A stretch of DNA of 64,000 bases from a virus (IMGVR_UViG_3300048839_001082:1-64000), one strand, 5' to 3'; shown: positions 3,211 to 42,351, counted from the stretch's first letter. Numbers and translations: made by a program. The notes: generated from the sequence alone by a model not told the origin.

Positions 3211-6200
3211 ATGACTAATGTTAACACAAAAATCTACGACAAGGCGATAGATCGTGCCGCAATGGTGAGACTGTATGAGCGTAGAGTGAATAGCAAAGTC
3301 GCTAAAGATCTCGATGATCATATTGTTCGTTTAGATAGTCTGATTAGAAAGACAGATAAGCTTAATAACCCTGCCTTAATGGATGGAATTGACCTTGAAC
3401 TTTTAAACACTTATAAAAATACCTTAAACACAACTAAAAGATCTCTTTTAGATTTATTCACTGATCAAGTATCATATGCCTACCAAAATATTGAAGTGGC
3501 CATGGGTCATATTTGGGAAACTGAAAGACCTCATACACGATTAGCTGAAGATGTTGTTTTAAAGAGATCTCTAGTGGGTGACAAGACATTGGCCGGAAGT
3601 TGGGCGGGTGTTAGTTATAATGAAAGACTTCGATTACAAGCTATAATTCGTAAAGGTATTGCAGAAGGTGAAACCGTCGATAAGATTGCCCTTGCCATTA
3701 GAAAAGGCAATCTACATCGAATCACACGTTCACAATCTAGAGCATTAGTCGTGACTTCAATAACTAGTGTGGCTTCTCAAGCAGACCAGGCTGTTTACTT
3801 AGCGAATGAAAAGGCAATTCGTGGTTATCAATACGTGGCTGTGTTGGATAGTAGAACCACGTTACTTTGTTCTCATCGTGACGGTAAAATCTTTCCTGTT
3901 GAAGACACTGTTCACTTGCCTCCGGCGCATATAAACTGCAGATCAACCACTGTTCCTGTAATGGCATCTTGGGAAGATCTCGCTAAATTGGAAGGCGTGG
4001 CTCAAGTTAGACGTAAGAATATTGAAAAATTGAGTAAGCGACAAATTGCATATTATGATGGCCTTACACCGCTTAAAGAAAGTTATAATGACTGGCTGCT
4101 TAGGCAGCCTAAAGAGGTACAATTACGTCATTTGGGTGATTATAAGCGTGTTGAGCTTTTTAATACTGGTGAGCTCACCGTGGATAAGTTTTCCAATGCT
4201 GAGGGTAACTCCGTAGGTATTCGCGAATTAAGAGCAATTACTGAAGCAGGTTATACAATACCTGGTGACACTAAACGATTTGCGGCTGCTAAAGCACAAT
4301 TAGATTCAATGCAATTAGGTGCTTCAAAACCTGAAGATTTCTTTATTGATAAAAAGTTAGTGAAAACACTTGAAGATTATTATGTGCTTCAATCTAAAGA
4401 GCTCGGTGGTACTTTATCATTAACTAATTATCGTGGCGCTTTGATTCATACCAAAAAGAGCATGAAATCTCGTGTGCTCACTTCTCCACCTAGAGAGGAT
4501 CAACTCAAATTTAACCCGATTACTGGAAGATATGAAGATGTTCGATTGTATCAACCCAATCCTGGCGTATTAGCTAATAATCTTAAACTTGTTGAAGAAA
4601 GCGATGTTCTTCTAGCGAAAGACAAAGAATTCTTATTGCAATTTTCAGACTCTCTAAAAGATCGTATGAGTGTGAATGAGCGAGCTGTGGTAGTTGACAA
4701 TTTAAGAATTTTGTTTACTCGTTATCGGAATAATAAAGAAATTTGGGGTAATTTCAAAGCTGTATCTCAGGCTCAGATTAAGTTTGATGTGATGAACGTA
4801 TCTGACGCAATAGAAACACAGATTAGGAAAGATTCAGATATTCTTAAGAAATTGCTTCAAGATAATTATATTGATCCGGTTTTAGGTCCCACTCAACTTG
4901 AGGAGTTACAAGCCACCTTTCTCAGTAACATTCGAGAAAGAAATCTTTGGGAAGATAGAGTTGCACCAGGAATTGCAAAGAAACTTCGTTCAACCTTTGA
5001 TCTTACTATTGCTAAGAAAGTGCCCACTGTCTGGGGCAGACTTTCTGATAGAGAACTGCAGCAATTTTATCTCAAGTTTGCCCATAGACTCAGCCTCGCA
5101 GACTCTCCAGACAGAGATCAATTCGCAGTTCAACTAGGTAGAGATCTTTATAATTTAGCTAATTATAATGGTGATCGTAGAAAGTGGTATGAACTTGGAA
5201 TGGCGATTTTAGAAACCAAGAAGGTTCATCGTTTCTTCGAGATTGAAACATTCGGTGTTCAAAAGCGTCGGATGAAAAGTCGAATGAGCGGCAATTATTT
5301 TGGACCCTATTACGATACTGTTGCTTACAATATCAGAGTGACCGACCCAAAAATACAAAGATATTCTCAATTAACTCGTAAGATCGATGTTGGCCTCAGA
5401 GTGGCTGTGATTGATCCTAAGAATCGTCTTGTGGTTAGAGAAGGTTATAAGACATACTTTATTGATCGTGGTTTACTTGGTTATGAAGATACTCGAATCC
5501 CTATTACTTCAACACACAGTTTTAGTGATTTCCCGGAAGAAATGGTGGATAAGAGTCTAGTCGATGCACTAAATTGGGCCGGTAAAACTGAGTATAAAAT
5601 CGATGAGGACTATCATGATTTTATCAGAAAGTTGTTATATTTTGAAGATGACAAAGGGAAGGCCAAATATTATAATGAGCTTAATGAGTATCGAAAGTTT
5701 ATTGCAGCTAGAGGCGATTCTTATGAACGATTCAAAGCAATGGAATGGCTTCGAAATTCAGGAAAGTCATTTAGCAACCATCCTTTCATCGATCACAGAG
5801 CCCGTATATATGATCGTGGAATGATCTCTCCACAATCCGGTGAAACCTTTCGACCTTTCTTAAATACCACTGAACCTAAGATTTTAGGAATTGATGGATA
5901 TGAAAATCTACAAGACCAAATAGGATCCTTTTTGGGTGGTTTGAACGATCGACTTGAAGGCAGGTTTAATTCGCTGACAGTGACAGGTAGACAAAAAATA
6001 GCTCAAAAGTGGAAAGCTGATTTAGTGAAAATCGGCAATCACATGTTAAGAGGGAAGCCTGGAGATATACGTGCAATACTCGAGTCGGAAATTACGAAAG
6101 ATATAGATGGTGAAGATATCGGAAAATTTTACAGATTCGCTATTGAGCAAGCCAAGCTCGATAATTATTTGGGCGGTGACTATTCTATCCGTAATCTTAA

Positions 6201-7887
6201 TAAGCTTAACAATTATCGCACTTCTCTTGCCTTAGAGCAAGATGCTTCTTCTTCAGGCGCTCAAATAATCGCAATTACAACACGTAATAAACAATTGGCG
6301 GAACTAAGCAATGTCATCCCAACAACTCAAAAGAAACGATTGTACGACGAAATTGCTGCTGCCACTTTCAATGATCCCCGGTTTAAAAATCTCAATAAGA
6401 AATTGGGACTATCGGAGAAGGATCTTCGAAAAGCGGCGAAAGCTCAAAATATGGTTACATTCTACGGAGCAGGCGAACGCACCGGAATCTTAAATGTTGA
6501 AGGGAAGTTGAGCAAAGTCCTTGGAAAAGATACAAATACTTTAGTAGTCAAGGCAGCGGATCGAGATACAGTACTCAACGAAATTTCAGCTCAAATTGCA
6601 AGATATGAGAAGTTTGATCTTGATACTGCAGAAGAGCTTCGATTACTAAGGAATAACGTTAAAGATATCTTTAACAAAGGACTTGATCCTGGTGATGATA
6701 TTCTTGAACAACTCTATTTCTTGCAACCACAAACACGTGAACTTGTTGAGAGAATGTCAACGAATTATGAACGAGTGGTAACCCCTGATGATTTTAAACA
6801 AGTCGCGAAAATCATGAGTGAGCATCTCGCGGAACAAGTGCCCATTCTCAAAGAATTCACTAAGTTTTATGGTAGATTGGCTGAAGACTTTTTAAAGAAT
6901 TCAAAACCATCTAAGAGCGATTTCGATTGGGAAAGTATTGCTAAAACAAGCATTCGAGGCTCTAAGTCTAAAGGTTATGTTTTGCCTGATGTGGTAAGTC
7001 GTATTTTAGGTATAAAAGCTAGAGAGCCTGTATCTGAAAAAGTTTTGAGACGTTTTGGTTTTTGGAAACCTGACGGAACATTAAGTGAAATTCTCTATGG
7101 GGTCCCTTCTCCCGAAGATCGTAGAACAGGCGCCAAATTTATGAAACTTGAGATACTAACACCTACACTTCCGACTCCAGAAAATCTATTGAAAGGTAAA
7201 TTTTTATCTGAGCAAAAAATATCAGGTGTTGAGGTCTTCTATGCTAATAAATTGCCTAAAAGCTGGACAAACGTTCCTTCTGCTAATTTTGATGGAAAAA
7301 TTATAGAACAAAATTTCACTCAAACTTTTGAAGAGCGTTTATTCTATAAAAATCCTGACGGTACTTGGACAACGAACATTCTACAAGTTCTTCAAAAGAC
7401 TTCTTCTAATTGGTGGGAAGAAGCAGCAAATAAAATAGGTAAGATAAATGATATTGCGGATGCTACTAAAGCTAGAACAGCTTTTGGTGTTAACGCTAAT
7501 CATTCCAATGATGCTGTATTGGTGAAGAAATTTCATTTGTGGGGTAAGCGTGAAGGTGTTCCAACTTCCACGATTCATGACGCTTTCTTCGCGAATGCAG
7601 CTGATATGCTTAAAGCTAGAAAGGCTTTACGTACAATCTATGCTGAAGCTTTAAAGAATAATGTTATCAAACTTACATTAGATGAGATGTTAGCTAGAGG
7701 ACTTCCCAGACATCTTTATGATCAATATCTAAAAGAAGCCATAGATTCTGGTCTGATCCCTGTAGAAGGTATTTCCAAGATCAATGGAAGAACAATGAAA
7801 AAGAATGATATTCTCAATGAAGATGATATTTTGAAACCCGTTCCTGACGGTTTTAAAACGGACTATAGCTGGTATGGAGTTGGCTGA
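3211..7887 (+). CDS. MuF/SPP1 gp7-like head morphogenesis domain fused to a T7-like single-subunit RNA polymerase (putative virion RNAP)
   Basis: N-terminal AVLDSRTT..C...DG...PPAHINCRST (MuF). C-terminal DHRARIY, motif A EQDASSSGAQ, motif B RKAAKAQNMVTFYG, NANHSNDA, motif C TIHDAF. Confidence 0.9.
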   Translation: MTNVNTKIYDKAIDRAAMVRLYERRVNSKVAKDLDDHIVRLDSLIRKTDKLNNPALMDGIDLELLNTYKNTLNTTKRSLLDLFTDQVSYAYQNIEVAMGHIWETERPHTRLAEDVVLKRSLVGDKTLAGSWAGVSYNERLRLQAIIRKGIAEGETVDKIALAIRKGNLHRITRSQSRALVVTSITSVASQADQAVYLANEKAIRGYQYVAVLDSRTTLLCSHRDGKIFPVEDTVHLPPAHINCRSTTVPVMASWEDLAKLEGVAQVRRKNIEKLSKRQIAYYDGLTPLKESYNDWLLRQPKEVQLRHLGDYKRVELFNTGELTVDKFSNAEGNSVGIRELRAITEAGYTIPGDTKRFAAAKAQLDSMQLGASKPEDFFIDKKLVKTLEDYYVLQSKELGGTLSLTNYRGALIHTKKSMKSRVLTSPPREDQLKFNPITGRYEDVRLYQPNPGVLANNLKLVEESDVLLAKDKEFLLQFSDSLKDRMSVNERAVVVDNLRILFTRYRNNKEIWGNFKAVSQAQIKFDVMNVSDAIETQIRKDSDILKKLLQDNYIDPVLGPTQLEELQATFLSNIRERNLWEDRVAPGIAKKLRSTFDLTIAKKVPTVWGRLSDRELQQFYLKFAHRLSLADSPDRDQFAVQLGRDLYNLANYNGDRRKWYELGMAILETKKVHRFFEIETFGVQKRRMKSRMSGNYFGPYYDTVAYNIRVTDPKIQRYSQLTRKIDVGLRVAVIDPKNRLVVREGYKTYFIDRGLLGYEDTRIPITSTHSFSDFPEEMVDKSLVDALNWAGKTEYKIDEDYHDFIRKLLYFEDDKGKAKYYNELNEYRKFIAARGDSYERFKAMEWLRNSGKSFSNHPFIDHRARIYDRGMISPQSGETFRPFLNTTEPKILGIDGYENLQDQIGSFLGGLNDRLEGRFNSLTVTGRQKIAQKWKADLVKIGNHMLRGKPGDIRAILESEITKDIDGEDIGKFYRFAIEQAKLDNYLGGDYSIRNLNKLNNYRTSLALEQDASSSGAQIIAITTRNKQLAELSNVIPTTQKKRLYDEIAAATFNDPRFKNLNKKLGLSEKDLRKAAKAQNMVTFYGAGERTGILNVEGKLSKVLGKDTNTLVVKAADRDTVLNEISAQIARYEKFDLDTAEELRLLRNNVKDIFNKGLDPGDDILEQLYFLQPQTRELVERMSTNYERVVTPDDFKQVAKIMSEHLAEQVPILKEFTKFYGRLAEDFLKNSKPSKSDFDWESIAKTSIRGSKSKGYVLPDVVSRILGIKAREPVSEKVLRRFGFWKPDGTLSEILYGVPSPEDRRTGAKFMKLEILTPTLPTPENLLKGKFLSEQKISGVEVFYANKLPKSWTNVPSANFDGKIIEQNFTQTFEERLFYKNPDGTWTTNILQVLQKTSSNWWEEAANKIGKINDIADATKARTAFGVNANHSNDAVLVKKFHLWGKREGVPTSTIHDAFFANAADMLKARKALRTIYAEALKNNVIKLTLDEMLARGLPRHLYDQYLKEAIDSGLIPVEGISKINGRTMKKNDILNEDDILKPVPDGFKTDYSWYGVG

Positions 7888-7889: not shown

Positions 7890-7909
7890 AAAGCTGTTAT
7901 ATTAACCCA
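7890..7909 (+). promoter_or_regulatory. candidate phage RNAP promoter, class CTGTT-N4-WAACCC, upstream of scaffold/capsid genes
   Basis: AAAGCTGTTATATTAACCCA matches 32550..32569 at 19 of 20 positions. Confidence 0.6.
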
Positions 7910-24213: not shown

Positions 24214-27200
24214 ATGCCCGGTGGAAATCCATATGAAGATTATGCAGCATCAGTTGATGCACAATCCGCTGCCGAAGCTGCGGTAGTCCCTGAACAATAT
24301 AATACAGTAACAATTCCCGGAACGGTTTTAAATAAAACTGTTGAAGGTGAAAAGAATGAGTTTTTATTTATTCAACAAGCATTATGTGTAGGACCAATTC
24401 AAGGTGTTTATGATGTGTTAATTGATGATGGTTTAGGGCTTACTGAACCTTCACTAGGTGCTGCAGGTTATGAAGATTTAGATGCAAAACCACTTTACCA
24501 AAGTGCGGCAATGCGTTTTGATATTCATAATGGAAATGGTGAAGAAGCTGATAATATCTTAGTAAAGAATTTTCCATCTAGATACTCAGCTAAATTTCCA
24601 AATACTGCGAATGCTTCTATCTGTGTTAAGCTAGATAGAGAAAATCCGCAATTCAATGGCGTGCCCAATGCGCAATTTTTCATCGAAGGTAAATTAGTAA
24701 GAGATATTACAAGGTCAGGCTCAGTTGGTGCTTATACTTACGCACTCACTGGTTTTGTTTACAGTAACAATTCCGCACTTTGTTTATTAGATTATCTTTT
24801 GTTATCGGAAGGTGGAAAAGGACTTTCAGCTTCACAGATTGATCTTGAAAGTTTTTATGATGCCAGAATTTTATGTGACACACCCGTATTAGATAATGCT
24901 TTAATTGGTGGACGTATTTGGAGACCTGAATCTGGCAGAAGAAGTGTTTCACAACGAAACCTTCCACTCTATGAATGTAATATTGTAATAGACACTGAAA
25001 AGACAATCCGTGAAAATGTCGAAGCAATTCTTAACACAATGGGAGACGCTCGACTCGTGTGGAGTCAGTCTAAATATAAACTGGTAGTGGCCTACCCTGA
25101 TTCAAATGCAGCGATTCCATACAGCGGTGAAATCACGGATGATGAATTGGTGCTCGGAGAGCCTATTGATATTTCTTGGCCAACTTCCTCAGAACGCCTT
25201 AATTTTTGTACAGTTCGGTTCAGAAATGAATCGATGGATTTTAAAGAGGATTCTGTTTCATGGCCTCCGAAACAATCAGGTACGTACCTCAGAGGAATTG
25301 GAGCATATTCTTACCCGATAGTTACAGGTTGGCCTTTGGGTGAAACTACCAGTGTGTTCATGAATGCGAATGCTGTTTGGACGGGCGGGACAGATAATAC
25401 ATTTGTTTGGAAGTTCGCAGTAAAGAATTCAGGTGCGCATACTTTAGACATTGCAGTTGATGATGATGGTTTACTCAATGTCAGAAGGAATGGTATTTTA
25501 GAAAGCAACGCCACGAATGTCGGTACTGGTAATAACTGGCGAAACTTCGTAACTCGCAGTTTTAATTGGGTTGAAGATGATATTATTGAAGTTACGATTC
25601 TCGCTAACAATTACCAAGGGCGTATTGCCGGTGTCGCTGGTAGAGTTCTGAATGTTGCCCTTCAAGCTCAGATATGGACCACGAGGTCACCTGCTTATAC
25701 TGATTTTGTTACAGTTAACCAAGATAAAACAGTTTATGATGAATTTTTAACTGAAGATAATAATATTCTTCTTGAAGCAGATATCTTCGCGGACGGTATT
25801 TCAGATTATTACCATGCTTTGGCGAAAGCTGAGGAAATGGTTAGAACAAGCAGAAGCGCATTTATTATTGAATTCACTTACAAAATTAAAGATAGATATT
25901 ACGAACCGGGTGACTTCGTTAAATTGACCAGTTCTACTTTGAATTTTGATGAATTGCCTTTAAAGACCGATGAGATTAAATCAAAAGACGATTTCACGGC
26001 TACTGTGAAGGCTACCAGATTTGACTATACTCAGTTAGCTTGGAATGTAAATGATAATGAATACATTGCTCCGAAAGCTGCCTACGATTTTCTTTTAAAT
26101 GCTCCGAGTGAAGTCGTTTTGGATCGTGAAATAATCTCTAACTTACAATCTTCAGGAACAGTTCGGTGGAAATCAACAGGTGATTCTAAGATAATTGGGT
26201 ATATTGTTTATGTAAATAAAGGTGGTGATAACGATGCAAATGGTTATCCTTTGTTTACTGAAGTGGGCAGAACTGGAATAAGTGAAGAATTCGAACTTCC
26301 AACCCTAGGCTATATGTATGGCGGTGTGGGTGTTAAAGCAATTTCTAATACATCCAGTTCAAAAATGACGGTTAACGCACAAGTCATTTTTAATAATCGT
26401 AAAATTGCATTGACAAGCAGCGATACACAGTTTATTAGAAGAGGTCCTGTTGATGAACCTAGTACAATAACACTGACAGCACACATTGCCGGATATGTGA
26501 ATCCAGTGATCCATTGGTACAAGAACGATGTGCTTTTGCCTGACTCTTCAACAACACTTGTTATTTCTTCAGATCCTGATGGTCTAAGTGTTGTTTATAG
26601 ATTAACAGTTGAAGAATCAGAATTTGTTTGGAATGGTGAACACAGAACAGCTCTCTATAGTACAATTACCATAGCCACACTGTCTGTCGGAAATGCGGCA
26701 TTTACGGACTACATATTTAGACGTGCTTTAACTATGCCGGCAACACCTACAGAACAAGGGATGCCGGCAGGGTGGTACGACACGCCTCCCACACCAAATG
26801 GAAATCCATTATGGGTAACGTGGGCTGAAAAAGATTCTGATGGTTTCCTGATCACATCTTGGGTCACTCCCGTGAATATTGAATCGGGTGATATTCATGT
26901 TCAATATAGTAAAGATGGTATTGCTGATTGGCATGATGTATTTGCTCCCGGCGATCTTTTCATTCATTACAATGTGAATGGAGGGGCTTGGTCAGCAGCG
27001 ATACAAATTTCTTTTGAAGGTATTGATTATTTAACAACTCATTTCATATTCACACGTTCCTTACTTGACCCTCCAGCTCTTGATAATACCGCAGATGAGC
27101 CTGTCGGATGGCTTGATGCGCCTCCAACAAACACGTTATTAGGTCCGCTGTGGTTTAGCACCGGCCAACGTTATAAAAATGGTCAGCTGAATAATGTGTG

Positions 27201-30200
27201 GAGTCCTCCCGTCAAATTAGAAGGCGAGGGTGTTATAGCTGAATACAGTGTTACTGGATTACCTGGCACATGGCACTCTGTATTTGCTGAAGGTGATCTT
27301 TATGGTCGTTACAAAGTTGGTGATGGTGACTGGTCAATTGCGGCAAGAATCGTTGCGGAAAATGGAACTTATGTTAGCTATATCTTTAAAAGATCAGCTA
27401 CAGATATAAGTGGAACACGACCCACGGGAAATGATCCCACATCAAATCAGGGATGGTTTGATGCGCCTCCAGCGGCTAATGTTAATGGTGATCCACTCTG
27501 GGCAAGTTTTGCTAATAAAACACTTGATGATGTTGTGATTGGGCTTTGGAGTTTCCCGGTACAGCTTGAAGGTGGTGCTTTTAAGATAGAATATAGTGAT
27601 GATGGTTTGGGAGATTGGAATGCTACTTTCAATGGGACCACACATAAATGGGCTCGCGTAAGTCAAGATAATGGTGCTCACTGGTCACCTTCATATAAAA
27701 TAGTTGGTGAAGATGGAACATCTTTTGTACTCAAAGGTACAAAGGCAACTGTGGGTGATCTGCCAGCTTCCGGAAATGCAGTGGGTGATATTTGGATTGT
27801 GACCGCGGACGGGAATGGTTATGCATGGGATGGTGATTCTTGGAATAATGTAGGCTCAATTCAAGGACCTGAGGGGGCTGCCGGTAAATATTCCACATTT
27901 GTGTTTAAACGAGCACCGGCAACACCGGTACCGACAACACCTACAGGGAACGATCCGACCGCACAAGGCTGGCTTGATTCCCCTCCAGCTGCGGATAACG
28001 GAAAGCCATTATGGGTCTCAACGACTTACAAAACAGCCGCGGGTGTATTGATCTCTCCGGGCTGGACCACTCCGGTACAATTGGAAGGTTCCGCCGTAAA
28101 GGTTCAATATAGTGATGATGCTGCTGGTACCAATGGATGGTTTGATACTTTCAATGGCACTACTCACAAATGGGCACACTACTCAACGGATGGTGGTTTC
28201 AATTGGTCGGCTTCAATAAAGATTGTCGGTGAGGACGGTGCTGACGCTATTTACGTTGATTTGACATCTGAATCGGATGTTACTGCAGCGGAGGCTGACG
28301 GCACCGGGTACGTACTCCCTTCAAGCAATCAATTAAAATTGTATGTTGGCGGTGTACATACAACAGTTGGTGTTACTTACGGTGGTAATGGGACTGTATC
28401 GGGCCTTACGGCAAGCATTAATACTTCAGGTGTGATCACATTCTCAGGTGCAAGTTGGACTTCAGATACGGTGGAATTCACGTTCACCGCGACACTCAAT
28501 TCTATCAGTTATTCAGCCAAATACACTTACGCAAAATCAAGAAAAGGTTCCGATAGTATTTTTCCGGATCTTTTATCTGAAGCGGATGTCATTTCAGCAA
28601 ATTTATCGGGAGTTTTGACAGCTTCTTTGCCGACGGGAAATAAATTCAATTTGCATAAGGGTGGTTTTATAATCCCATCAGCGCAAGTTGTCTTCGGCGG
28701 TAGTACTACGAGAAATGGATTGACATTAAATATTGGTGCTTCAACTGGAGTTATTACACTCACTCAAAATCCCACTTGGACAAGTCTTTCTGAATCCTTT
28801 GTGTTAACTGCTACATATGGCCCTCCAGGTTCTGAAGTTGTGTACAGTAAAATTTACACCATATCTAAAGCACAACAAGGTGCGACGGGTGATGCCGGAT
28901 CGAAAGGTGATACCGGTGAGCAGGGTGCACCGACCTATACATGGGTTGCTTATGCTAATGACGCTAATGGCACTACGCTCTTTTCGACGACAGACCCCGT
29001 CGGTCGTGCATATATTGGTCTAGCTTTCAATCAGTTAACACCGACACCTGAAGCATGGCCTGGATATTATACATGGTCTTTAATCAAAGGCGAACAAGGT
29101 ATTCCGGGTGTCGGTATTCAAGGACCTCCTAGCTATACTTGGATAGCTTATGCAAATAACGCTACAGGCTTAAATTTCAATACAGGAGCTTGGACTAACG
29201 AAACTTATATCGGTATTGCTGTAAACAAATCAACTGCGGATGAATCCGGAAGTGTTTGGTCGGATTATGTGTGGTCAAAAATTCAAGGTTCGAAAGGTGA
29301 TACTGGGAATCCTGGTCAACGCACCATAATTTTGACCTGTTATAAATGGTATATGAGCGCACCCGCAGTCAATGATTATACACAGGTTGTGACTTATACA
29401 TGGGCAGGCGGGCCTATAAGCTATCCAGGTGGTACTATTGCATGGGCGACAGCTGCTCCCGCAAATACCTTGGGGGAAGGCGCATCATTATATCAATTAG
29501 AATTACATATAACAGACTTAACGGGTATTTCGACTCAAACAGTTTCCAATTGGTCCGCGGCAAAACTAAATGTAATTGGATATACACCCGCAGGTATTGT
29601 TGGTGCCAATGGGCAATCCGCAAGAAAAGCCTACAAAGTTACTACCATACTTTCTCCAGCGCCAAGCGTTACTGCAGGAGTGGGAGATGCAGCTCCGACG
29701 GGAGGATGGTCGTTTATTGCCACAACAACACTTGCTTCGTATGAATATCAATTCACTGTGGATGGCATTCTAACTCCCGGTGGTAATATTACATGGGGAA
29801 ATCCTTATTTAGCTTCATGGAAAGTTGGTAATTTACAAGCTATAGCCGTCGATACAGGTGCTCTTAATGTTTCATTAGGGATGACGATTTCTGATACAGG
29901 GAGCATTGCGTCATCAGGTGCTACTGCTTTTGGAACAGGTGTTGGTATCTGGCAAGGTTATGAAGCAGGTCAATACAAAGCCAGATGGGGAAATCCCACA
30001 GGCGCTAGAGTGCAATGGACAGGTACCAACTTTCAAGTTTATAATACAAACAATCAACTTGTGTTGAGTGCGGGTGGAGCGGTGTGGGATTATGTTACAG
30101 GGACGGGCAAACCCGCGAACAATGCGGGGACGGTAATTGATGGTTCAAGAACCACAAACCCGCAACCTCAAGAATTTCCGCCTCATGAAACATTTTATCT

Positions 30201-31125
30201 TAAAGATGCAGCATCTATCCAGCACCCTACGACGTATGGTTCCCTTGGTATATTAAGAACTGTTCGTCCTTACGGACCAGCTGATGATCCAGATCTTACA
30301 GGTGGTGCTGTTAATCAATGGTTTGAAATTAACGGAATGGTGGGATTCCGAAAATCCACAAATGCAACTACGTGGGGCAGTTGGGAGTATGTTCCTAATG
30401 GCAAAATTAAAAGTAGCAATGTCACCACATTTATTGACTCCGCGGCTATTGGTTGGGCACAAATCGGTAATCTAGATATAAATGCCAATGGTTATTTACG
30501 ATCTGTCAAACCAAGCTATGGCAGTGCCACTGCCGGTATTTATCTTGCTTATAATAATGGTGTCCCTCATTTAGACATTGGTGATTCAACAAAGTATTTT
30601 CGTTGGAGTGGAACTGATTTATTGGTCGGTGGAGACATCATTGCCACCGGGAATATCAAGGCGAGGAATGTTACTAACTCTATATCCAATTCTCTTCAAA
30701 ATTTTCAATTGCCAGTAACAGGAGGAAATGGTGCTTATCAAAGACTTATTGTCGGTGATTTTACTAAAGAACATGCAGGTTCAAAAGTTTTTTTATACTT
30801 AACACTTGTTTTAAATATAAATATAGTGAGTGGAGTTAATGGAGGTCTTGCTTCTTTAGTAGTTCCAGTGGCAGTTATAGGTGGTAAAGGAGCTGAGTCT
30901 TACATTTTTAGATATCCTGTTTCATCTTATTATACATCAAGTCCTATTAATATTCCTATATCGTTTTCAATGGACATTACCCCTTATGTATACGATGGAT
31001 CTCCCAATCCTATAAATATTGATATTAATTATATACAGTTGGTAAATGCTAATCAAGTTTCATTTAATTGGATTAGTACTGCTTTCTTATCAGGATCGTG
31101 CATTGTAACAGAATTGAAAGTATAG
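24214..31125 (+). CDS. central tail fibre/host-specificity (gpJ-like) protein, 2303 aa
   Basis: SNNSALCLLDYL and ID.ESF tip motifs, FN3-like segment, four Trp/Pro-rich repeats, collagen-like G-x-x runs. Confidence 0.85.
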   Translation: MPGGNPYEDYAASVDAQSAAEAAVVPEQYNTVTIPGTVLNKTVEGEKNEFLFIQQALCVGPIQGVYDVLIDDGLGLTEPSLGAAGYEDLDAKPLYQSAAMRFDIHNGNGEEADNILVKNFPSRYSAKFPNTANASICVKLDRENPQFNGVPNAQFFIEGKLVRDITRSGSVGAYTYALTGFVYSNNSALCLLDYLLLSEGGKGLSASQIDLESFYDARILCDTPVLDNALIGGRIWRPESGRRSVSQRNLPLYECNIVIDTEKTIRENVEAILNTMGDARLVWSQSKYKLVVAYPDSNAAIPYSGEITDDELVLGEPIDISWPTSSERLNFCTVRFRNESMDFKEDSVSWPPKQSGTYLRGIGAYSYPIVTGWPLGETTSVFMNANAVWTGGTDNTFVWKFAVKNSGAHTLDIAVDDDGLLNVRRNGILESNATNVGTGNNWRNFVTRSFNWVEDDIIEVTILANNYQGRIAGVAGRVLNVALQAQIWTTRSPAYTDFVTVNQDKTVYDEFLTEDNNILLEADIFADGISDYYHALAKAEEMVRTSRSAFIIEFTYKIKDRYYEPGDFVKLTSSTLNFDELPLKTDEIKSKDDFTATVKATRFDYTQLAWNVNDNEYIAPKAAYDFLLNAPSEVVLDREIISNLQSSGTVRWKSTGDSKIIGYIVYVNKGGDNDANGYPLFTEVGRTGISEEFELPTLGYMYGGVGVKAISNTSSSKMTVNAQVIFNNRKIALTSSDTQFIRRGPVDEPSTITLTAHIAGYVNPVIHWYKNDVLLPDSSTTLVISSDPDGLSVVYRLTVEESEFVWNGEHRTALYSTITIATLSVGNAAFTDYIFRRALTMPATPTEQGMPAGWYDTPPTPNGNPLWVTWAEKDSDGFLITSWVTPVNIESGDIHVQYSKDGIADWHDVFAPGDLFIHYNVNGGAWSAAIQISFEGIDYLTTHFIFTRSLLDPPALDNTADEPVGWLDAPPTNTLLGPLWFSTGQRYKNGQLNNVWSPPVKLEGEGVIAEYSVTGLPGTWHSVFAEGDLYGRYKVGDGDWSIAARIVAENGTYVSYIFKRSATDISGTRPTGNDPTSNQGWFDAPPAANVNGDPLWASFANKTLDDVVIGLWSFPVQLEGGAFKIEYSDDGLGDWNATFNGTTHKWARVSQDNGAHWSPSYKIVGEDGTSFVLKGTKATVGDLPASGNAVGDIWIVTADGNGYAWDGDSWNNVGSIQGPEGAAGKYSTFVFKRAPATPVPTTPTGNDPTAQGWLDSPPAADNGKPLWVSTTYKTAAGVLISPGWTTPVQLEGSAVKVQYSDDAAGTNGWFDTFNGTTHKWAHYSTDGGFNWSASIKIVGEDGADAIYVDLTSESDVTAAEADGTGYVLPSSNQLKLYVGGVHTTVGVTYGGNGTVSGLTASINTSGVITFSGASWTSDTVEFTFTATLNSISYSAKYTYAKSRKGSDSIFPDLLSEADVISANLSGVLTASLPTGNKFNLHKGGFIIPSAQVVFGGSTTRNGLTLNIGASTGVITLTQNPTWTSLSESFVLTATYGPPGSEVVYSKIYTISKAQQGATGDAGSKGDTGEQGAPTYTWVAYANDANGTTLFSTTDPVGRAYIGLAFNQLTPTPEAWPGYYTWSLIKGEQGIPGVGIQGPPSYTWIAYANNATGLNFNTGAWTNETYIGIAVNKSTADESGSVWSDYVWSKIQGSKGDTGNPGQRTIILTCYKWYMSAPAVNDYTQVVTYTWAGGPISYPGGTIAWATAAPANTLGEGASLYQLELHITDLTGISTQTVSNWSAAKLNVIGYTPAGIVGANGQSARKAYKVTTILSPAPSVTAGVGDAAPTGGWSFIATTTLASYEYQFTVDGILTPGGNITWGNPYLASWKVGNLQAIAVDTGALNVSLGMTISDTGSIASSGATAFGTGVGIWQGYEAGQYKARWGNPTGARVQWTGTNFQVYNTNNQLVLSAGGAVWDYVTGTGKPANNAGTVIDGSRTTNPQPQEFPPHETFYLKDAASIQHPTTYGSLGILRTVRPYGPADDPDLTGGAVNQWFEINGMVGFRKSTNATTWGSWEYVPNGKIKSSNVTTFIDSAAIGWAQIGNLDINANGYLRSVKPSYGSATAGIYLAYNNGVPHLDIGDSTKYFRWSGTDLLVGGDIIATGNIKARNVTNSISNSLQNFQLPVTGGNGAYQRLIVGDFTKEHAGSKVFLYLTLVLNINIVSGVNGGLASLVVPVAVIGGKGAESYIFRYPVSSYYTSSPINIPISFSMDITPYVYDGSPNPINIDINYIQLVNANQVSFNWISTAFLSGSCIVTELKV

Positions 31126-31126
31126 T

Positions 31127-31717
31127 ATGCAATATTTTAAATCGGATGAATATGGAAATATTATTCAAATATTACAATCAGACCACGGAATTAACGATAT
31201 TTCTTTTATACAATATGAGAATGATCTTTCAAAACACTGGTATAACATAAGCACGCAGACCGTTATTCAATATACTGATCTACAACAGACAAACAAACGT
31301 AATTATAAAATTGGTGCTACGCATTGGTCTAATGCAACAATGGAATGGGTGATTCCTGATGCACTCAATAACGCAAAACGCCTAGCCAATTCAAAGATAA
31401 CATATGCACGTTCTCTCGCGACATTATCTAGCTTTACCTATGACGGAAAAGAAATTGCCACGGATTCATTATCAAGATCAGATATTGATGGAATTTCTAG
31501 TTATGTTGCGTTATTTGGAGCATTGCCGTCCAACTTTCCGAACGCATGGAAAGCGATGGATAATACATATGTTTCAATTCCCGATGTCGCGACTTGGAAA
31601 TTATTCATAACTGCGATGGTCGCTAAAGGCACGACAAATTTTCTCAATTCAGAAACAAAAAAATCATCAATTGCGTCAGCGCTCACGGTGGAGGAAGTTG
31701 AGGCCATCCAATGGTAA
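31127..31717 (+). CDS. tail fibre-associated protein (DUF4376-like)
   Basis: F.YDG....D..SR..I.G, WKAMDN.YV and terminal A.T.EEV.AI.W motifs. Confidence 0.7.
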   Translation: MQYFKSDEYGNIIQILQSDHGINDISFIQYENDLSKHWYNISTQTVIQYTDLQQTNKRNYKIGATHWSNATMEWVIPDALNNAKRLANSKITYARSLATLSSFTYDGKEIATDSLSRSDIDGISSYVALFGALPSNFPNAWKAMDNTYVSIPDVATWKLFITAMVAKGTTNFLNSETKKSSIASALTVEEVEAIQW

Positions 31718-32549: not shown

Positions 32550-32569
32550 AAAGCTGTTAAATTAACCCA
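32550..32569 (+). promoter_or_regulatory. candidate phage RNAP promoter upstream of the lysis genes
   Basis: AAAGCTGTTAAATTAACCCA, near-identical to 7890..7909. Confidence 0.6.
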
Positions 32570-32666: not shown

Positions 32667-33212
32667 ATGGAATTAATAGCTGCAGTATTCGGTTTCTTTG
32701 CTCCATTTCTGACTGAAGCGTTTAAGATATTTCAGAAGAAACAAGATAATGCTCATGAGCTCTCCATGATGAGAATTCAGATTGAAGCTAAAGCACAAGA
32801 ACATGTTTATAGAATGGAAGAGATTAATGCTAATGCTGATATCGCTGAAATGAGCACTCTCAGAGCTGCTCCTACATCTTTCGGTGTACAGTTGATCGAT
32901 GCAGCTGCTAATAAGAATTTTAGCAAGTGGATGATTGGCCCGGTATTTTATCTATTTGCCATTCTTGATTTTATATCCAGTCTCGTGAGACCCACGATCA
33001 CTTACGCGGCTTTCACGTTTTACGCGGCAGTGAAGTGGGCTCAGTTTGAGCATGCTCGTACATATCTTGGAAGCAATTATAGCGCGCTTTTGCAGATATG
33101 GACGACTTCAGATATGTCCATTGTTATTTTAGTGCTATCCTATTGGTTTGGACAAAGAGCAGCTAAGGCAGCCTTTGGTGGCTCAGCTAATACAATAACC
33201 AAAGGTGGCTAA
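32667..33212 (+). CDS. putative holin (3TM-holin-like)
   Basis: Transmembrane segments with VRP.ITY and YWFG.R motifs; directly upstream of the endolysin. Confidence 0.65.
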   Translation: MELIAAVFGFFAPFLTEAFKIFQKKQDNAHELSMMRIQIEAKAQEHVYRMEEINANADIAEMSTLRAAPTSFGVQLIDAAANKNFSKWMIGPVFYLFAILDFISSLVRPTITYAAFTFYAAVKWAQFEHARTYLGSNYSALLQIWTTSDMSIVILVLSYWFGQRAAKAAFGGSANTITKGG

Positions 33213-33712
33213 TGGACAAAGAAGTCTTAGAATTGGTGAAAACAATTGCAATGCCATTCGAAAGACTTTATTTAGATGCGTATTGGGACCCTCATCCTCA
33301 CGGTCTTCCGACACAAGGATGGGGTCGTCTCCTCTCTCGCTACAGTCGGAAAATGCATCTAGATGAAGGTAAAACTTTAGAGCAAGCTAATGAATGGCTT
33401 CGCACCACATATCCACGAATAACCAGAGACACGGCTGATGAATGGCTTGAAGAAGATATTGAAAAGGCTAATAAAGCGGTTAAACGATTGGTCAAGGTCT
33501 CACTCACTCCGGGACAAGAAGCTGCCTTAACTGATTTTGCCTATAACGTAGGACCGGGCAATTTACAAATTAGCACACTTCTTAGAATGATAAATCGAGG
33601 TGACTTCCCGGATGCCGTTGAAGAATTTGAGAAGTGGAATAAATCAGGGGGTGTTGTTCTTAAAGGTCTAGTTCGCCGTAGAGCGGCTGAAGTTTTGATG
33701 TTTATGCTTTGA
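33212..33712 (+). CDS. endolysin, phage lysozyme (GH24)
   Basis: FE.....AY.D...T.GWG, AL.DFAYNVG and KW.K.GG.VLKGLVRRR.AE motifs. Confidence 0.9.
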   Translation: MDKEVLELVKTIAMPFERLYLDAYWDPHPHGLPTQGWGRLLSRYSRKMHLDEGKTLEQANEWLRTTYPRITRDTADEWLEEDIEKANKAVKRLVKVSLTPGQEAALTDFAYNVGPGNLQISTLLRMINRGDFPDAVEEFEKWNKSGGVVLKGLVRRRAAEVLMFML

Positions 33713-34429: not shown

Positions 34430-34454
34430 GCGGAAAAAGGGGTATCTTATATGA
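34430..34454 (+). promoter_or_regulatory. candidate early promoter GCG-N9-GTATCTTATATGA (copy 1)
   Basis: 13-nt core repeated exactly at 38214..38226; both copies are intergenic and precede gene blocks. Confidence 0.55.
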
Positions 34455-35280: not shown

Positions 35281-35317
35281 GCCGGATCAGTAACCGGCAT
35301 TAATTTTTTTTTTTCGA
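35281..35317 (+). terminator. hairpin plus A-T11-CGA terminator-like signal (copy 1)
   Basis: GCCGG-ATCAGTAA-CCGGC then T11CGA; the same T11CGA occurs at 39351..39365. Confidence 0.6.
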
Positions 35318-35331: not shown

Positions 35332-35628
35332 ATGACGAAGTACATCGGAAATGCGTTTTCTCTGGCGATGGTCCGCGATGAGGATCTAAATAAGGTCTTC
35401 ATGGTCCCTTGCATGGAGCCTGATAGTCGTGAGTGTGTGTCCGTGGTTGGACACGCGGATACGGCGGCCATGCTGGGTGTTGCCTTCAATCGGGTCAGTC
35501 TTCAACTCGAGCCTGGCGACGAACTTTATGTTGCCCAGTATCAAGGAGGACGGCTTCCTGAGGGTGCCACAACGTTGCCGGAGGGTAGTAGTTTCCGGTG
35601 GATCCTTGTTAGTGTTAGAGATTTTTAA
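35332..35628 (+). CDS. DUF1874/STIV B116-like protein
   Basis: YIGNAFSL.M, S.VGH.DTA..L, NR..L.L.PGD and RLPEG motifs. Confidence 0.75.
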   Translation: MTKYIGNAFSLAMVRDEDLNKVFMVPCMEPDSRECVSVVGHADTAAMLGVAFNRVSLQLEPGDELYVAQYQGGRLPEGATTLPEGSSFRWILVSVRDF

Positions 35629-38201: not shown

Positions 38202-38226
38202 GCGCGTAAATCAGTATCTTATATGA
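38202..38226 (+). promoter_or_regulatory. candidate early promoter GCG-N9-GTATCTTATATGA (copy 2)
   Basis: Exact core repeat of 34442..34454. Confidence 0.55.
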
Positions 38227-38557: not shown

Positions 38558-38567
38558 AGGAGATGTC

Positions 38568-38813
38568 ATGTTCAAGACTATTGTTAATTTTCTCTTCAGT
38601 GGCCTGAGTTTCGCATGGTTCGTTCTGCTTCTCGGTGGGCTGATCACCATGTTGACCGCGCCTTCGCTGTTCGGTTTCGTGCTCGTCACGGCGGGTGCGT
38701 TGGCCACCCTCAAACTGGCCGTGGCAATCGCGTTCGGTGTCGGCGGCTTGCTCGGCGCCGGTGCGCATTATCTACGGCGGCGTTTGACAGGGCATAAGTT
38801 CGAGCAAGTATGA
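38568..38813 (+). CDS. membrane protein
   Basis: AAGGAG RBS; hydrophobic helices and a basic tail. Confidence 0.65.
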   Translation: MFKTIVNFLFSGLSFAWFVLLLGGLITMLTAPSLFGFVLVTAGALATLKLAVAIAFGVGGLLGAGAHYLRRRLTGHKFEQV

Positions 38814-39037
38814 TCGCATCTTTAAAACGTGCGGTGCTGGCCATGACAGTAGTGCTGTTTATCGGAATGCTTTTAGCGTTCTTTAGTGCACCTGTTTTCT
38901 TAGGGTTCACTATCATAACAGCCTCTGTCGTGGCCACAGTGACCACATATGCTCTGCTGGCATTTACAGTTACCTTCCTTTGGGAATGGTTGAGGAAAAA
39001 GAATGCAAAACATTCAAACAATCAATCGACCGCCTGA
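38810..39037 (+). CDS. membrane protein
   Basis: ATGA overlap; two hydrophobic helices and a basic tail. Confidence 0.6.
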   Translation: MIASLKRAVLAMTVVLFIGMLLAFFSAPVFLGFTIITASVVATVTTYALLAFTVTFLWEWLRKKNAKHSNNQSTA

Positions 39038-39302
39038 AATACTGGTAGAAGGATTCTTTGCAACGCGCAAAGATTATCCAGATATCAGTAAGCAATTTTT
39101 GGATGAGCAATCGTTCAAACAGAGTGTGAGAAGATTTACTGCTGATGATCTATACATTACAGACATAGAAAAACTAAAAGGAAATCTTTTGAATGCAATC
39201 GAGGTAGTAGGTGTTATACAGCTGTCAGGGTCGCTCATCCCATTCTTCGTCACGAAGGAAAAAGCAAAACAATTGCGAATGTTGATTGGTAGACGGAGTT
39301 GA
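39003..39302 (+). CDS. hypothetical protein
   Basis: GAGG RBS; last gene before the terminator. Confidence 0.6.
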   Translation: MQNIQTINRPPEILVEGFFATRKDYPDISKQFLDEQSFKQSVRRFTADDLYITDIEKLKGNLLNAIEVVGVIQLSGSLIPFFVTKEKAKQLRMLIGRRS

Positions 39303-39311
39303 TAAAATAAA

Positions 39312-39365
39312 CTACCAAGCACCTTAAAAAGGTGCTTGGTAGAGTTCCCTATTTTTTTTTTTCGA
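39312..39365 (+). terminator. 14-bp hairpin plus A-T11-CGA (copy 2)
   Basis: CTACCAAGCACCTT-AAA-AAGGTGCTTGGTAG then T11CGA. Confidence 0.65.
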
Positions 39366-39594
39366 AAGGGCAATGTGAGCGAGAATGAAATCAAGGGCGT
39401 GCATTTTTTGATGATTGTGATTACCTTGATTGTTCTTTCTCCTTTGTCATTTGAAATGTCGGTATTAGTGTCGATTTTAATCTATATGTATCAGAAAGAA
39501 ATGACCAAATGAAAATTTTGATCTTGCTGTTTTTATTGTATGTAATTCCAAAAATTGTCAGTAAACTTAAATAAATTGTAAATCAGGAGTCGTC

Positions 39595-42351
39595 TTGAAA
39601 TCGAGAGTAGTGGCTTCATTGACTCGGAGAATTACCACTGAAGCTGTTCTGCAAGCTCAGTTACGATTCTTAAAAGAGCATGATGTGAACTCTTATGTAA
39701 ATACTGTAATTTCTACATTATACTTGTACACAAGACCTAAAAAGGGTTACGAAACAACTTCTGTTTACATGGCTGAATTGATTTCTGCCTTGGGTCATGG
39801 TGTGCGAACAAAACTTAAGCTCAAAAGAGACTCCAATGCCGCTGCTAAACTAGGTGCATTTTTATTATATACATTCGAAGAACTTGGTTATATAAAAGTG
39901 ATATTGGGTGTGGGAACGAGACACGCCACTTATATCGTGACTGTAACCAATGACAATGCAATAGTATCGATGTGGAGTGCGATGGAAGCTTCTCATATTG
40001 AGAAATTACCGTCCGGAACTCCATATGCTCCTTGGACCAGCACAAAACATAATGCTGGAATTCGAATGGTGAAGACTAATGATAAAGGAGTACTTGATAA
40101 AATCGCTCCTGAAACTCATCCAATTTTATTCAATGTACTTAACAAAGCTCAAGCCGTCGGTTGGAGAATTCATAAAGAGATTTACGACCTTCATGCATGG
40201 GCGCTAAGGAATAAAACGGATGCATTTGCCGATATTTGGGAACAACAAAATCCCGAAGCGAAGGCTACGAAAATAAGAGAAGTTAAAGCCATCGGCGAAA
40301 TGGCAAAGAAGTTTCTTAACAGTCCAATATATCATCTCTATTATTATGATTTTCGTGGTAGGAAATACACGAATACAGCTTATTTACATGAACAGGGTAA
40401 TGATCTGGCCAGAGCTTTACTCCAAAGAATTGACGAGAAGAAAATAGGCAGAGCAGGTTATTGGTGGATGCTGGTATCAATTGCGTCAAATTGGGGTGGT
40501 GATTCTGGCAGACTTGATGGACTAAAAACTGATAAGATTCCCCTTCAAGAACGTTATTTATGGGCGTTAGATAATGAAGATATTTTATTGGCATATGCTG
40601 AAAAGCCTAAGGTACATCAAGGTTGGATGAAGGCTGACAAACCTTGGCAGTTTCTCGCAGGATGCATTGAGCTAAAAAGACTCAGAGAATGGCAGTATCA
40701 ATACGGCAGTGTTAAAAACCCATTTGAAGATTATAATTATGAATCTCACATGGAAGCCTACATTGATGGTAGCAATAATGGTTCTCAACATCTGGCTGCT
40801 TTGACGCTGGATGAAGTCACGGCGCCTCACGTAAATTTGGTTCCGTTAGAACTTCCAGGAGATCTCTATTCTTATGTGGCCGGACATGTATGGGACCATC
40901 TGCATGAGCTCTTGAAAGATTATCCAGAAGAAGAACGTGAAGACTGTGAAATCTTTATCGATAACTTGATAGAATTGAAGAAGAAGATAACTGCGGCCGA
41001 GCCTAAAAGCGATGTGAGAAGAGAATTAATAGCTTCGATTCAAACTTTTAAAGAGGCTAATCAATATATTCTAGATAAATCTGCCGCGGTGTATTGGTAC
41101 AGGATCGAAGATAATAAGCACAAAAGAAAGATCGTGAAGAGAAACGCGATGACAATTCCGTTGTAAAGGCGGAAGTAAAAGAGGGTGAATTCAGTGGACA
41201 TCCATTCGCTGTGGACAATACTGAGCCGAGCCGTTTAAACGGAAGGTGCAACGACTATCATGTAGGGCAGAAGTCTGCTCGAAGCCCCCTCCACTCCTTG
41301 AGTGATGATATAGTCTGGTCTGCATAGTAATATGCAGCTGTATTAAGCAATTGGTATGAATATGAATTGGAACGAAATCTTTATCTACAACGCAGATGGC
41401 AGTTTAACGAGGCGTTATTCAAATAATCAGCATAATACTGTTGGCTGGATAAATAGTTCAGGTTACAGAGGTGTTGTTAGAACTAAAAATAATAAATTTC
41501 AAGCACGTTTAACGCTAGAAGGTAAAAAGCTTTACTTAGGCTTGTTCGATACGCCCAAGGAAGCTTTTGATTGTGTTGAAACTACACGTAAAGAGTTGTA
41601 CGGCGAATTTGCAACTCTTAGATAAATTGCTTAATACGGGTGAAGATTAACGAACTTCATTGAACACAACGATGGTGGAACAAGTTATGGAATGGGGCAG
41701 CAGATAATTGATGATTCTAGAAAACACGGTATTGACCAGTTACTCTATTTAGAACATAAATGGGGTGCCTTCTTGGGTAGAGCCGTCTTTAATGATTGTC
41801 GATTATCTTTAAAACGCCCTATGAAGCTGTTATCAATTTTTGAAGAAGCCGGAAAGAAAGCCGAGAAACAAGGTAGATTTCTGTCTTGGACAGTGCCTAT
41901 AACAAATTTCCCAGTAGTTCAACACTACACAGAAGGTGTGGTGAAGAAGGTCTGGTGTCAATATGGTCCTCCTAGGGGTCCTCGACTCAGTACAAATTAC
42001 TTCGAAAACACTTACCAAATTTCTATTTCTTTCATCGAAGAACGTGTGCCTTCCCGAAATAAACAATCTCAAGGTGCGAGTCCCAATGCCATTCATAGCT
42101 TAGATGCAGCTCATTTGGCGTTGACCGTTGAAAGATGTGATTTCCCAGTAACTACCATTCATGATAGTTTCGGGTGTTTATTAGCTGACATGCCTGTTTT
42201 GTTCAGGACGGTTAGAGAGACTTTTGTTGAACTTTATAATGCCAATCCGTTAGAGCATTTAATGAAAGACTTAGGCTGCAATATCAATGATGTGGATAGA
42301 GGTACGCTAGATATTTCACTAATACTCGAATCTGAGTATGCATTTTCATAG
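39595..42351 (+). CDS. T7-like DNA-dependent RNA polymerase, intron-split: join(39595..41161,41672..42351), 748 aa
   Basis: DFRGRKY, motif A IDGSNNGSQH, motif B restored by splicing (RKIVKRNAMTIP-Y-GG), PNAIHSLDA, motif C TIHDSFG, C-terminal YAFS. Confidence 0.9.
41162..41671 (+). mobile_element. group I intron in the RNAP gene (510 nt)
   Basis: P1 TTCCGT/GCGGAA with U-G at the 5' splice site; P7 elements ACGACTA and GATATAGTCT; terminal G; splicing restores frame and motif B Tyr. Confidence 0.9.
41356..41625 (+). pseudogene. intron-encoded HNH-AP2 homing endonuclease remnant lacking the HNH domain
   Basis: SGYRGV...KFQAR....GKKLYLGLFDT..EA...LYGEFA AP2-type domain; no HNH motif; flanked by the TATTAAGCAATT/AATTGCTTAATA stem. 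Confidence 0.7.

Follow-up and report, generated by a model that had tools for sequence, protein, structure and literature searches.

RNA polymerases carried in the virion are known from N4-like podoviruses, giant phages, crAss-like phages and the Thermus phage P23-45. For N4 (Schitoviridae), passages of PMC4496689 describe a succession in which the virion RNA polymerase (RNAP) gp50 is followed by RNAPII (gp15/gp16) and then by the host RNAP. In P23-45, a virion RNAP fused to the tape measure is accompanied by a non-virion RNAP, according to parts of 10.1101/2022.12.01.518664. Passages of PMC5512222 characterize MuF proteins as components of the head that carry fused effectors for delivery into the host; the same passages confine N4-like virion polymerases to N4-like phages and do not list a MuF-polymerase fusion. 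Here we analyze the virus sequence IMGVR_UViG_3300048839_001082:1-64000, a stretch of 64,000 nucleotides (nt) called the window in the following and corresponding to the initial 64 kb of one 81,522-bp virus record (complete record: G000). It encodes a fusion of a MuF head protein with a T7-fold RNAP and, in a separate gene, a stand-alone single-subunit RNAP (RNAP2). With a probability of roughly 55%, we read the two enzymes as a phage-encoded relay that resembles the one of N4 and is assembled from different parts: a virion polymerase delivered by MuF would act at an early motif, and RNAP2 would then take over at a middle/late motif. The relay, including the packaging of the fusion, the assignment of enzymes to promoters and the independence from the host polymerase, is what we infer from the features discussed below and compiled in Table 1.

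The complete record contains exactly two loci matching RNA_pol (PF00940) and one matching Phage_Mu_F (PF04233). Both families meet in the fusion, where Phage_Mu_F covers amino acids (aa) 144-247 with 48.9 bits (cut-off 29.6) and RNA_pol covers aa 995-1106 in two stretches with 42.7 bits (gathering cut-off 22 bits; 45.7 bits summed in the search of the complete record). A Pfam scan of the fusion revealed no peptidase domain, and the linker (aa 351-700) gave no Pfam match. Motif A reads DASSSG (aa 1011-1016) and motif C IHDAF (aa 1455-1459, with H1456/D1457); the DxxGR motif is present as DHRAR with Ala for Gly, its second Arg, R865, being invariant. In an alignment of 27 fusion homologues with 19-75% identity, D1011 of motif A, K1074, K1077, Y1085 and G1086 of motif B, D1434, and D1457 of motif C are invariant as well. 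Since the catalytic residues are retained down to 19% identity, the fusion polymerase looks active as judged from its sequence.

An AlphaFold (AF2) model of aa 700-1558, built on the 27 homologues, reached a predicted local distance difference test (pLDDT) value of 82.7 and a predicted template modelling score (pTM) of 0.80. T7 and mitochondrial RNAPs ranked first in a Foldseek search with this model (E ~1e-15, 830-900 columns). Comparison by VIA-align gave Z 30.1 for T7 RNAP (1s76; root-mean-square deviation (rmsd) 3.0 Å, 538 residues, 19% identity) and Z 30.6 for yeast mitochondrial RNAP, while the N4 mini-vRNAP (3c46) was aligned with Z 22.0 and an rmsd of 5.0 Å over 528 residues at 12% identity. 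The model of aa 1-700 (pLDDT 85.6, pTM 0.57) had no Foldseek match in the PDB at E <= 0.001. Against BFVD it matched head-morphogenesis and minor-capsid proteins, among them a 1463-aa protein (E 5e-35), the MuF-ADP-ribosyltransferase fusion of Xanthomonas phage Xp12 (E 1.8e-13) and plain head-morphogenesis proteins of ~360 aa with template modelling (TM) scores up to 0.74; for phage Halfdan, a TM score (target) of 0.70 over 385 columns was obtained.

The RNA_pol score of the fusion is weak, and a phmmer search of solved structures reaches T7 RNAP at just E 0.07. Together with the known priming of replication by T7 and mitochondrial polymerases, these values would suit a fusion polymerase that makes no messenger RNA and instead provides replication primers or R-loops, or persists as a structural relic. 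We consider this hardly credible, as it is opposed by the invariant catalytic residues, by the modelling of the whole T7 fold including its N-terminal parts (T7 residues 60-883 are aligned in some chains), and by a large, intact family with full-length open reading frames (ORFs) without stops in 4 of 4 records.

RNAP2 is encoded in two exons which, once joined, yield 748 aa without internal stops. This single frame carries DFRGR at 252, DGSNNG at 391, motif B (K515...Y523-G) and IHDSF (H686/D687), and one segment aligns with the T7 specificity loop; exon 1 matches T7 and mitochondrial RNAP chains at E 1e-20 to 1e-24. From these sequence features, the enzyme is apparently active. The Rfam family Intron_gpI matches positions 41141-41337 with 63.6 bits (gathering score 50, E 8.5e-14). 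Among 80 related loci from IMG/VR, 75 yielded both exon halves, separated by a single codon in 58 and by 259-1022 nt in 17, and the one-codon gap of the 58 places the junction at the Tyr codon of motif B. An intron ORF of 89 aa (41356-41625) had no match in a Pfam search. Contigs of two wastewater runs (labelled 'RNA?') are uninformative on splicing, with none joining 41161 to 41672 and one crossing the 5' junction unspliced. In the wastewater runs, contig depths sum to 212 (X1) and 91 (X2) over the intron core at 41302-41341, compared to ~16 and 6 for the flanking gene, and many contigs diverge there into unrelated sequence. It follows that the same core is present in many other elements of that community.

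An earlier note, made from this DNA alone, had claimed two strongly divergent single-subunit RNAPs, one of them fused to MuF and the other a stand-alone enzyme of 748 aa at 39595-42351 after splicing, differing even in their core motifs (DASSSG vs DGSNNG, IHDAF vs IHDSF). All of these claims are confirmed: the fusion by two Pfam families above cut-off and a modelled T7 fold, the spliced gene by the Intron_gpI match and the 58 of 75 uninterrupted relatives, and the differing motifs by the positions given above. When RNAP2 was compared by BLASTP with the polymerase part of the fusion, identity was 22% in a stretch of 214 aa and 26% in one of 146 aa. The phylogeny that the note had proposed likewise separates the two enzymes. 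In a quick, unrooted IQ-TREE search (28 rows, 815 columns, LG+C20) with several long branches, including a very long one for N4 RNAPII, whose two subunits were concatenated, three groups were obtained: N4-type virion polymerases (branch support 100), MuF-fused polymerases (98), and RNAP2 with three Autographiviridae polymerases (98). A branch within the last group (92) has RNAP2 on one side, and the RNAP2 of roseophage DSS3_VP1 clusters with loci L080 and L075 (99), which belong to a set of more distant relatives, clade B (~42% identity to the window in RNAP2, 31-33% in the fusion). From the separate clades we conclude that the fusion polymerase is neither a recent copy of RNAP2 nor a relative of N4 gp50. 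A tblastn search with the N4 mini-vRNAP matched 383 phage records, of which the best 20 were all N4-like and included neither DSS3_VP1 nor EBPR siphovirus 1.

In a word-indexed search with the fusion, 461 protein clusters were found at E <= 0.001 among 8000 candidates scored. The best 120 of the 461 are 65-99% identical; 112 of these contain both Pfam domains, and the other 8 are shorter (879-1302 aa). An exhaustive comparison of the polymerase part with 1.84 billion representatives returned 156 proteins at E <= 0.001, nearly all of them fusions or fusion fragments, the full-length members having 1264-2073 aa and matching in the C-terminal half. The polymerase therefore represents a family of its own that is found as a MuF fusion, and this fusion appears to be common. 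All whole records with RNAP2 that were searched (4 of 4, including two of clade B) also possess an uninterrupted fusion ORF of 1473-1567 aa. Both genes are also present in DSS3_VP1, where the fusion, of 1463 aa, is annotated as 'head morphogenesis' and RNAP2 as 'RNA polymerase'. The fusion orthologue of EBPR siphovirus 1 (25771-31144) is split by an HNH endonuclease gene, and the record names the pieces 'head protein', 'HNH endonuclease' and 'hypothetical protein', leaving the polymerase unannotated.

Two promoter-like motifs accompany these genes. A scan of G000 with a position weight matrix (PWM) derived from relatives revealed just two sites of the bipartite early motif and none on the other strand. 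In the relatives the element reads AAA-n-(T/C)GCG(G/C)AAAA-N3-(G/A)GTATCTTATATG(A)(A/T)A and was detected 73 times, at 40 of 80 loci and always on the coding strand; the instances were selected by core and GCG, so that only the remaining positions provide independent evidence. With one exception (72 of 73), they lie 0.9-7.5 kb 5' of the RNAP2 start. Where at least 3 kb of upstream sequence is available, 33 of 39 loci have the motif, and the remaining 6 all belong to clade B. Records G001, G002, G003 and G004 contain 2, 4, 0 and 0 copies, respectively. There is an inverted repeat overlapping early copy 1, and no hairpin at this place is common to copy 2 and most relatives.

The middle/late motif, CTGTT-N4-WAACCC, has four exact copies in G000, all on the + strand and 51-132 nt 5' of gene starts. 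Allowing up to one mismatch, the window contains 7 matches compared to 1.6 expected, and none of 100 shuffles reaches 7. Clade-A relatives show CCGTT-N3-TTAACCC at equivalent sites; in 53 of 73 clade-A loci, this form was found within 150 nt 5' of the gene orthologous to ORF 43102. The distance from its end to the start codon has a median of 40 nt and a range of 26-57 nt, and the flanks are unconserved. Over the 80 loci (1.16 Mb), the coding strand carries 75 middle/late copies and the opposite strand a single one. The same polarity is seen in G001 (5 forward, 0 reverse, one of them 12 nt past its fusion gene) and in G002 (6 and 0, with a copy after the fusion gene as in the window), and reversed-pattern controls gave 0 in both records. 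The exact CTGTT pattern of the window recurs 3' of RNAP2 in only 1 of 74 relative loci, where the motif is present in the CCGTT form; CTGTT in place of CCGTT is confined to the window and L031. In an alignment of 41 clade-A RNAP2 sequences with the window and T7, no residue is unique to the pair of window and L031, so the CTGTT variant links no enzyme to the motif.

The layout of both motifs fits the relay, since early motifs are found only 5' of RNAP2, and the middle/late motifs follow the RNAP2 and fusion genes and head the modules. In the proposed sequence of events, the MuF part would dock the 1558-aa fusion at the portal during head assembly; its gene lies between portal and capsid genes in the head module, and a predicted complex of the portal with MuF aa 1-350 scored 0.01. 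A few copies of the T7-fold polymerase would thereby be packaged and would leave the capsid with the DNA. In the new cell, the virion polymerase would initiate at the early promoters at 34430 and 38202 to express small host-takeover genes and would read through the hairpin/T11 element at 39312-39365 into the intron-containing RNAP2 gene. RNAP2, produced after self-splicing, would then initiate at the CTGT-type promoters at 7894, 32554, 43049 and 62435 and transcribe the head-tail, lysis, replication and packaging modules, the last of which includes the fusion gene and would thus supply the next generation.

A reversed assignment, in which RNAP2 would act at the early motif and the CTGT/CCGT motif would be served by the fusion polymerase, either from the virion or newly synthesized, has to be weighed here as well. 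No computed result ties an enzyme to a motif, and both motifs change between clades A and B. As early motifs occur 5' of RNAP2 in 72 of 73 cases, however, RNAP2 would be unable to make its own first transcript under this assignment. Further, one CTGT/CCGT motif occupies the gap that follows the terminator of RNAP2, in G001 the stop codon of the fusion has another one within 12 nt, and the fusion gene ends the packaging module, as expected of a late virion component. We therefore rate the reversed assignment as quite improbable.

Expression of RNAP2 is the difficult step of the relay. The hairpins followed by A-T11-CGA close both early units, the second ~230 nt 5' of RNAP2. Comparable runs of at least 7 T were found within 600 nt 5' of RNAP2 in 30 of 51 relatives, mostly at 160-300 nt and with a length of 7 to ~50 T. 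In most of the relatives' rows a GC-rich hairpin, judged by eye, precedes the run, and its loop is often TTCG or GAAA. A pyrimidine-rich spacer lies between hairpin and A-T(n) run. The element may act as a terminator, or it may be a regulatory tract of variable length. In the relatives, we saw no conserved motif in the 140 nt directly preceding RNAP2, and 30 distinct sequences between T-run and RNAP2 start share no conserved word, the top 7-mers being AT-rich and present in 8 of 30.

The earlier note had further placed RNAP2 right after a putative early region, recognized two promoter-like motif classes and proposed a relay from the virion RNAP to RNAP2. The region from 34.4 to 39.5 kb indeed contains small ORFs, two tRNAs and, of the motifs, the two early ones only, and both classes proved to be conserved in relatives on the coding strand. 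The relay stands in part: two intact enzymes, the motif layout, the MuF fold and the head-module position speak for it, and the hairpin/T11 element and the lack of a conserved promoter before RNAP2 do not. Several points weigh against the relay. With a hairpin/T11 element and no conserved promoter upstream, RNAP2 requires read-through or an unrecognised promoter. The stretch from 35.3 to 38.2 kb has no early motif of its own in the PWM scan. The early 13-mer alone (34442, 38214) is not significant in the window (3 occurrences vs 2.25 expected; 42 of 100 shuffles reach 3), so that the weight of the early motif comes from its conservation in relatives only. In the tree, which results from a quick search, several branches are long. 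Finally, both polymerases diverge between the clades, and a change of motif can therefore not pair an enzyme with a motif.

The main rival is a T7-like scheme in which the host RNAP reads the early units and RNAP2, and RNAP2 the remainder. The fusion would then be packaged mainly for genome entry or an accessory role, and the early motif would be a host-type promoter or a regulator site. The position of RNAP2 behind a terminator-like element without a recognisable phage promoter suits this scheme, as do its sister relationship to Autographiviridae polymerases (98), whose early genes use the host polymerase, and the phi-A318 record, which annotates an early operon read by the host RNAP. The properties of the early motif point in the other direction. 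It comprises a nearly invariant contiguous core of 12-13 nt, which was used for selection, and an upstream GCG-AAAA half, and, judged by their consensus sequences, it fits neither sigma-70 promoters (17-nt spacing) nor the Bacteroidota -33/-7 type. It is kept where the phage polymerases are ~60-75% identical and is absent from clade B. Sigma-70-like sites between 32 and 43.5 kb are close to expectation (25 vs 20.2). On balance, the T7-like scheme appears unlikely.

Outside clade A, the signals differ. The clade-B records G003 and G004 lack both clade-A motifs; instead, G003 contains 5 and G004 contains 3 copies of ACCAGGG-ACGCTAAAG, which are confined to the coding strand, and one of them directly follows RNAP2. 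DSS3_VP1 has about ten + strand copies of an ATAGG-T-CGTTAAAGAGG motif in its first 50 kb, similar to the clade-B motif. As DSS3_VP1 is in culture, its motif offers a candidate promoter for a phage polymerase that is accessible in a cultured phage. A signal that changes together with the phage polymerases behaves as expected of phage-polymerase promoters. Taken further, long-tailed phages of a widespread family, to which the cultured Naomviridae belong, might run their whole programme without the host RNAP, with the MuF-borne polymerase at a nearly invariant 28-bp early promoter and RNAP2 at a clade-specific promoter elsewhere; we put forward this generalization tentatively, at slightly short of even odds.

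Table 1. Coordinates of the transcription genes, motifs and neighboring features (window numbering unless stated otherwise).
Feature	Position	Strand	Remarks
Portal gene	1016-2662	+	PHROG phrog_145 portal, E 9.5e-61; Pfam DUF4055; two genes 5' of fusion gene
MuF-RNA polymerase fusion gene	3211-7887	+	1558 aa; MuF ~aa 1-380, helical linker, T7-fold polymerase ~aa 700-1558
Middle/late copy 1	7894-7908	+	CTGTT-N4-TAACCC; 7 nt past fusion stop, 73 nt before next gene; head genes next
Homologue of DSS3_VP1 head-module protein	7981		next gene after fusion
Major head protein gene	8664		
Tape measure	13054		3202 aa
Tail fibre-like protein	24214		2303 aa
Middle/late copy 2	32554-32568	+	5' of membrane protein and endolysin
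Membrane protein, then endolysin	32667-33712		endolysin at 33212, phrog_7, E 1.5e-42
Small-ORF block and two tRNAs	34.4-39.5 kb		5' of RNAP2
Early copy 1	34430-34454	+	GCGGAAAA-N-GTATCTTATATGA; 37 nt 5' of ORF 34491; PWM 47.6 bits
Hairpin and A-T11-CGA	35281-35317	+	terminator-like; closes early unit 1
Early copy 2	38202-38226	+	5' of small membrane-protein ORF run; PWM 31.6 bits
14-bp palindromic hairpin and A-T11-CGA	39312-39365	+	closes early unit 2; ~230 nt 5' of RNAP2
RNAP2 gene	39595 (start)		between small-ORF block and replication module
RNAP2 exon 1	39595-41161	+	ends after base 1 of motif-B Tyr codon; Pfam RNA_pol 108 bits, E 6.9e-31
Group I intron	41162-41671	+	510 nt; Rfam RF00028; insert absent in 58/75 relatives
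RNAP2 exon 2	41672-42351	+	holds motif C IHDSF; Pfam RNA_pol 83.5 bits, E 1.9e-23
Terminator-like hairpin and T5	42993-43018	+	0.64 kb past RNAP2 stop, short unannotated stretch between; by gap 43021-43101
Middle/late copy 3	43049-43063	+	39 nt 5' of SSB-like gene 43102, first of replication module
Replication module	43.1-58.2 kb		SSB-like protein, nucleotide kinase, DNA polymerase, exonuclease, primase/helicase, ribonucleotide reductase, ligase
Middle/late copy 4	62435-62449	+	5' of genes running past contig end to terminase, portal, fusion
Terminase	70610-71953		outside window; by homology
DSS3_VP1 (L087) motif ATAGG(G/T)T(G/A)CGTTAAAGAGG	2332, 6580, 7408, 19202, 19236, 29396, 45925, 46392, 46551 (DSS3_VP1 record)	+	

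The gene order in Table 1 was derived from PHROG and Pfam matches. Nearly all long ORFs of the window are on the + strand, and a small ORF lies between portal and fusion genes. The ends of the 81,522-bp record overlap by ~58 bp within a 69-bp tandem repeat, which indicates circle-closing by the assembly. In the assembled record, the 69-bp unit is arranged head-to-tail at window positions 1-282 (4 copies) and genome positions 81396-81522 (2 copies); it corresponds to 23 codons, and the array is located at the 5' end of an open frame at 1-843. Near-identical sequence was found in wastewater metagenome contigs of one study, one piece of 3434 nt differing at 50 positions. At the DNA level, comparison of positions 39000-46000 with phage records gave just matches of 36-106 bp in the intron region, amounting to 1% of the query. 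The closest named phages are EBPR siphovirus 1 (fusion 60% identity) and the roseophages DSS3_VP1 and DSS3_PM1 of the Naomviridae (fusion 29%, RNAP2 31%).

A GC-rich island at 48000-50000, between exonuclease and NAD-synthetase-like genes, has 58% G+C compared to ~39% elsewhere and looks like recently gained foreign DNA; its ORFs 47819-48490 and 48786-49508 had no match in a Pfam search. The ribonucleotide reductase gene is split (53313-54365 and 55113-56042), with an ORF for a LAGLIDADG homing endonuclease at 54434-55060 in between, probably another intron or intein-type insertion. In the 878-aa primase/helicase (50680-53316), aa 7-482 match phrog_239 and aa 483-739 match 'terminase large subunit' PHROGs; the latter part could be an inserted domain or an intein. 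In the early region, ORF 35332-35628 has a weak match to the STIV B116-like Pfam family (DUF1874), with 19.6 bits below the cut-off of 26 bits.

If the generalization above is correct, the fusion would be the first virion polymerase of the T7 fold from outside the N4 lineage. MuF delivery of such an enzyme in ordinary-sized long-tailed phages would represent a further, independent solution to carrying a polymerase in the virion. If the assignments hold, two new promoter-polymerase pairs would become available, with the motifs as concrete templates for in vitro transcription. The model is directly testable, as the roseophages DSS3_VP1 and DSS3_PM1 are in culture. Public records label the fusion merely as 'head morphogenesis' or 'head protein'. 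Our literature search, whose coverage excluded supplements and subscription journals, found no paper on a MuF-polymerase fusion or on a two-polymerase long-tailed phage. The main text of PMC8323127, which describes the roseophages, contains no occurrence of 'RNA polymerase', 'RNAP' or 'MuF', 'RNA polymerase' is absent from PMC12669031 and PMC12697855, and PMC12390700 and 10.1101/2025.10.29.685362 mention DSS3_VP1 for taxonomy only.

DSS3_VP1 and DSS3_PM1 (PMC8323127) are similar in architecture, sharing the order of portal, 1463-aa 'head morphogenesis' protein, head genes, tape measure, small ORFs and RNA polymerase. There are 19 ORF matches with the present genome, and a repeated coding-strand motif is found in these phages as well, although its sequence is different and the identities of fusion and RNAP2 are low, as given above. 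The DNA of both roseophages is deoxyuridine (dU)-substituted, whereas a homologue of the DSS3_VP1 deaminase ORF was not found in our genome at E 1e-5 (first 50 kb of the DSS3_VP1 record compared).

With the Autographiviridae, RNAP2 shares the sister-group position in the tree, the same four motifs and the specificity-loop segment, and the succession of RNAP2, terminator and phage promoter-like motif resembles the annotation of phi-A318. In contrast to these phages, RNAP2 has 748 instead of 883 aa and contains a group I intron in its gene, and it occurs in a long-tailed phage of 81 kb together with a second polymerase.

Similar to N4, a virion polymerase of the T7 family would serve the early genes and a second, early-encoded phage polymerase would take over, with packaging of the former being proposed here. 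The parts are different. N4 gp50 comprises ~3500 aa with a central polymerase, a C-terminal metallopeptidase region and no MuF domain, whereas the fusion is 1558 aa long, carries MuF N-terminally and extends to its C-terminus with the polymerase; the latter fits T7 RNAP better than the N4 mini-vRNAP (see the Z values above) and belongs to a separate clade. Early promoters of N4-like virion polymerases are hairpins, compared to a linear bipartite early element without an obvious hairpin, and the two subunits of N4 RNAPII are replaced by a single chain. N4 is a podovirus, and in the long-tailed phage described here the structural genes follow a second phage motif, so that the host polymerase may be dispensable.

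Similar to P23-45, as far as the parts of 10.1101/2022.12.01.518664 cited above describe it, a virion polymerase fused to a structural protein would read the pre-early genes including the gene of the second polymerase; the polymerases of P23-45 are of the two-barrel type and the virion enzyme is carried on the tape measure, whereas both enzymes of our phage have the T7 fold and the carrier is a MuF head protein. With the MuF-effector fusions in the passages of PMC5512222, our fusion shares an N-terminal MuF head protein and a C-terminal enzyme thought to be delivered with the DNA. Unlike in those fusions, the cargo is a whole RNA polymerase.

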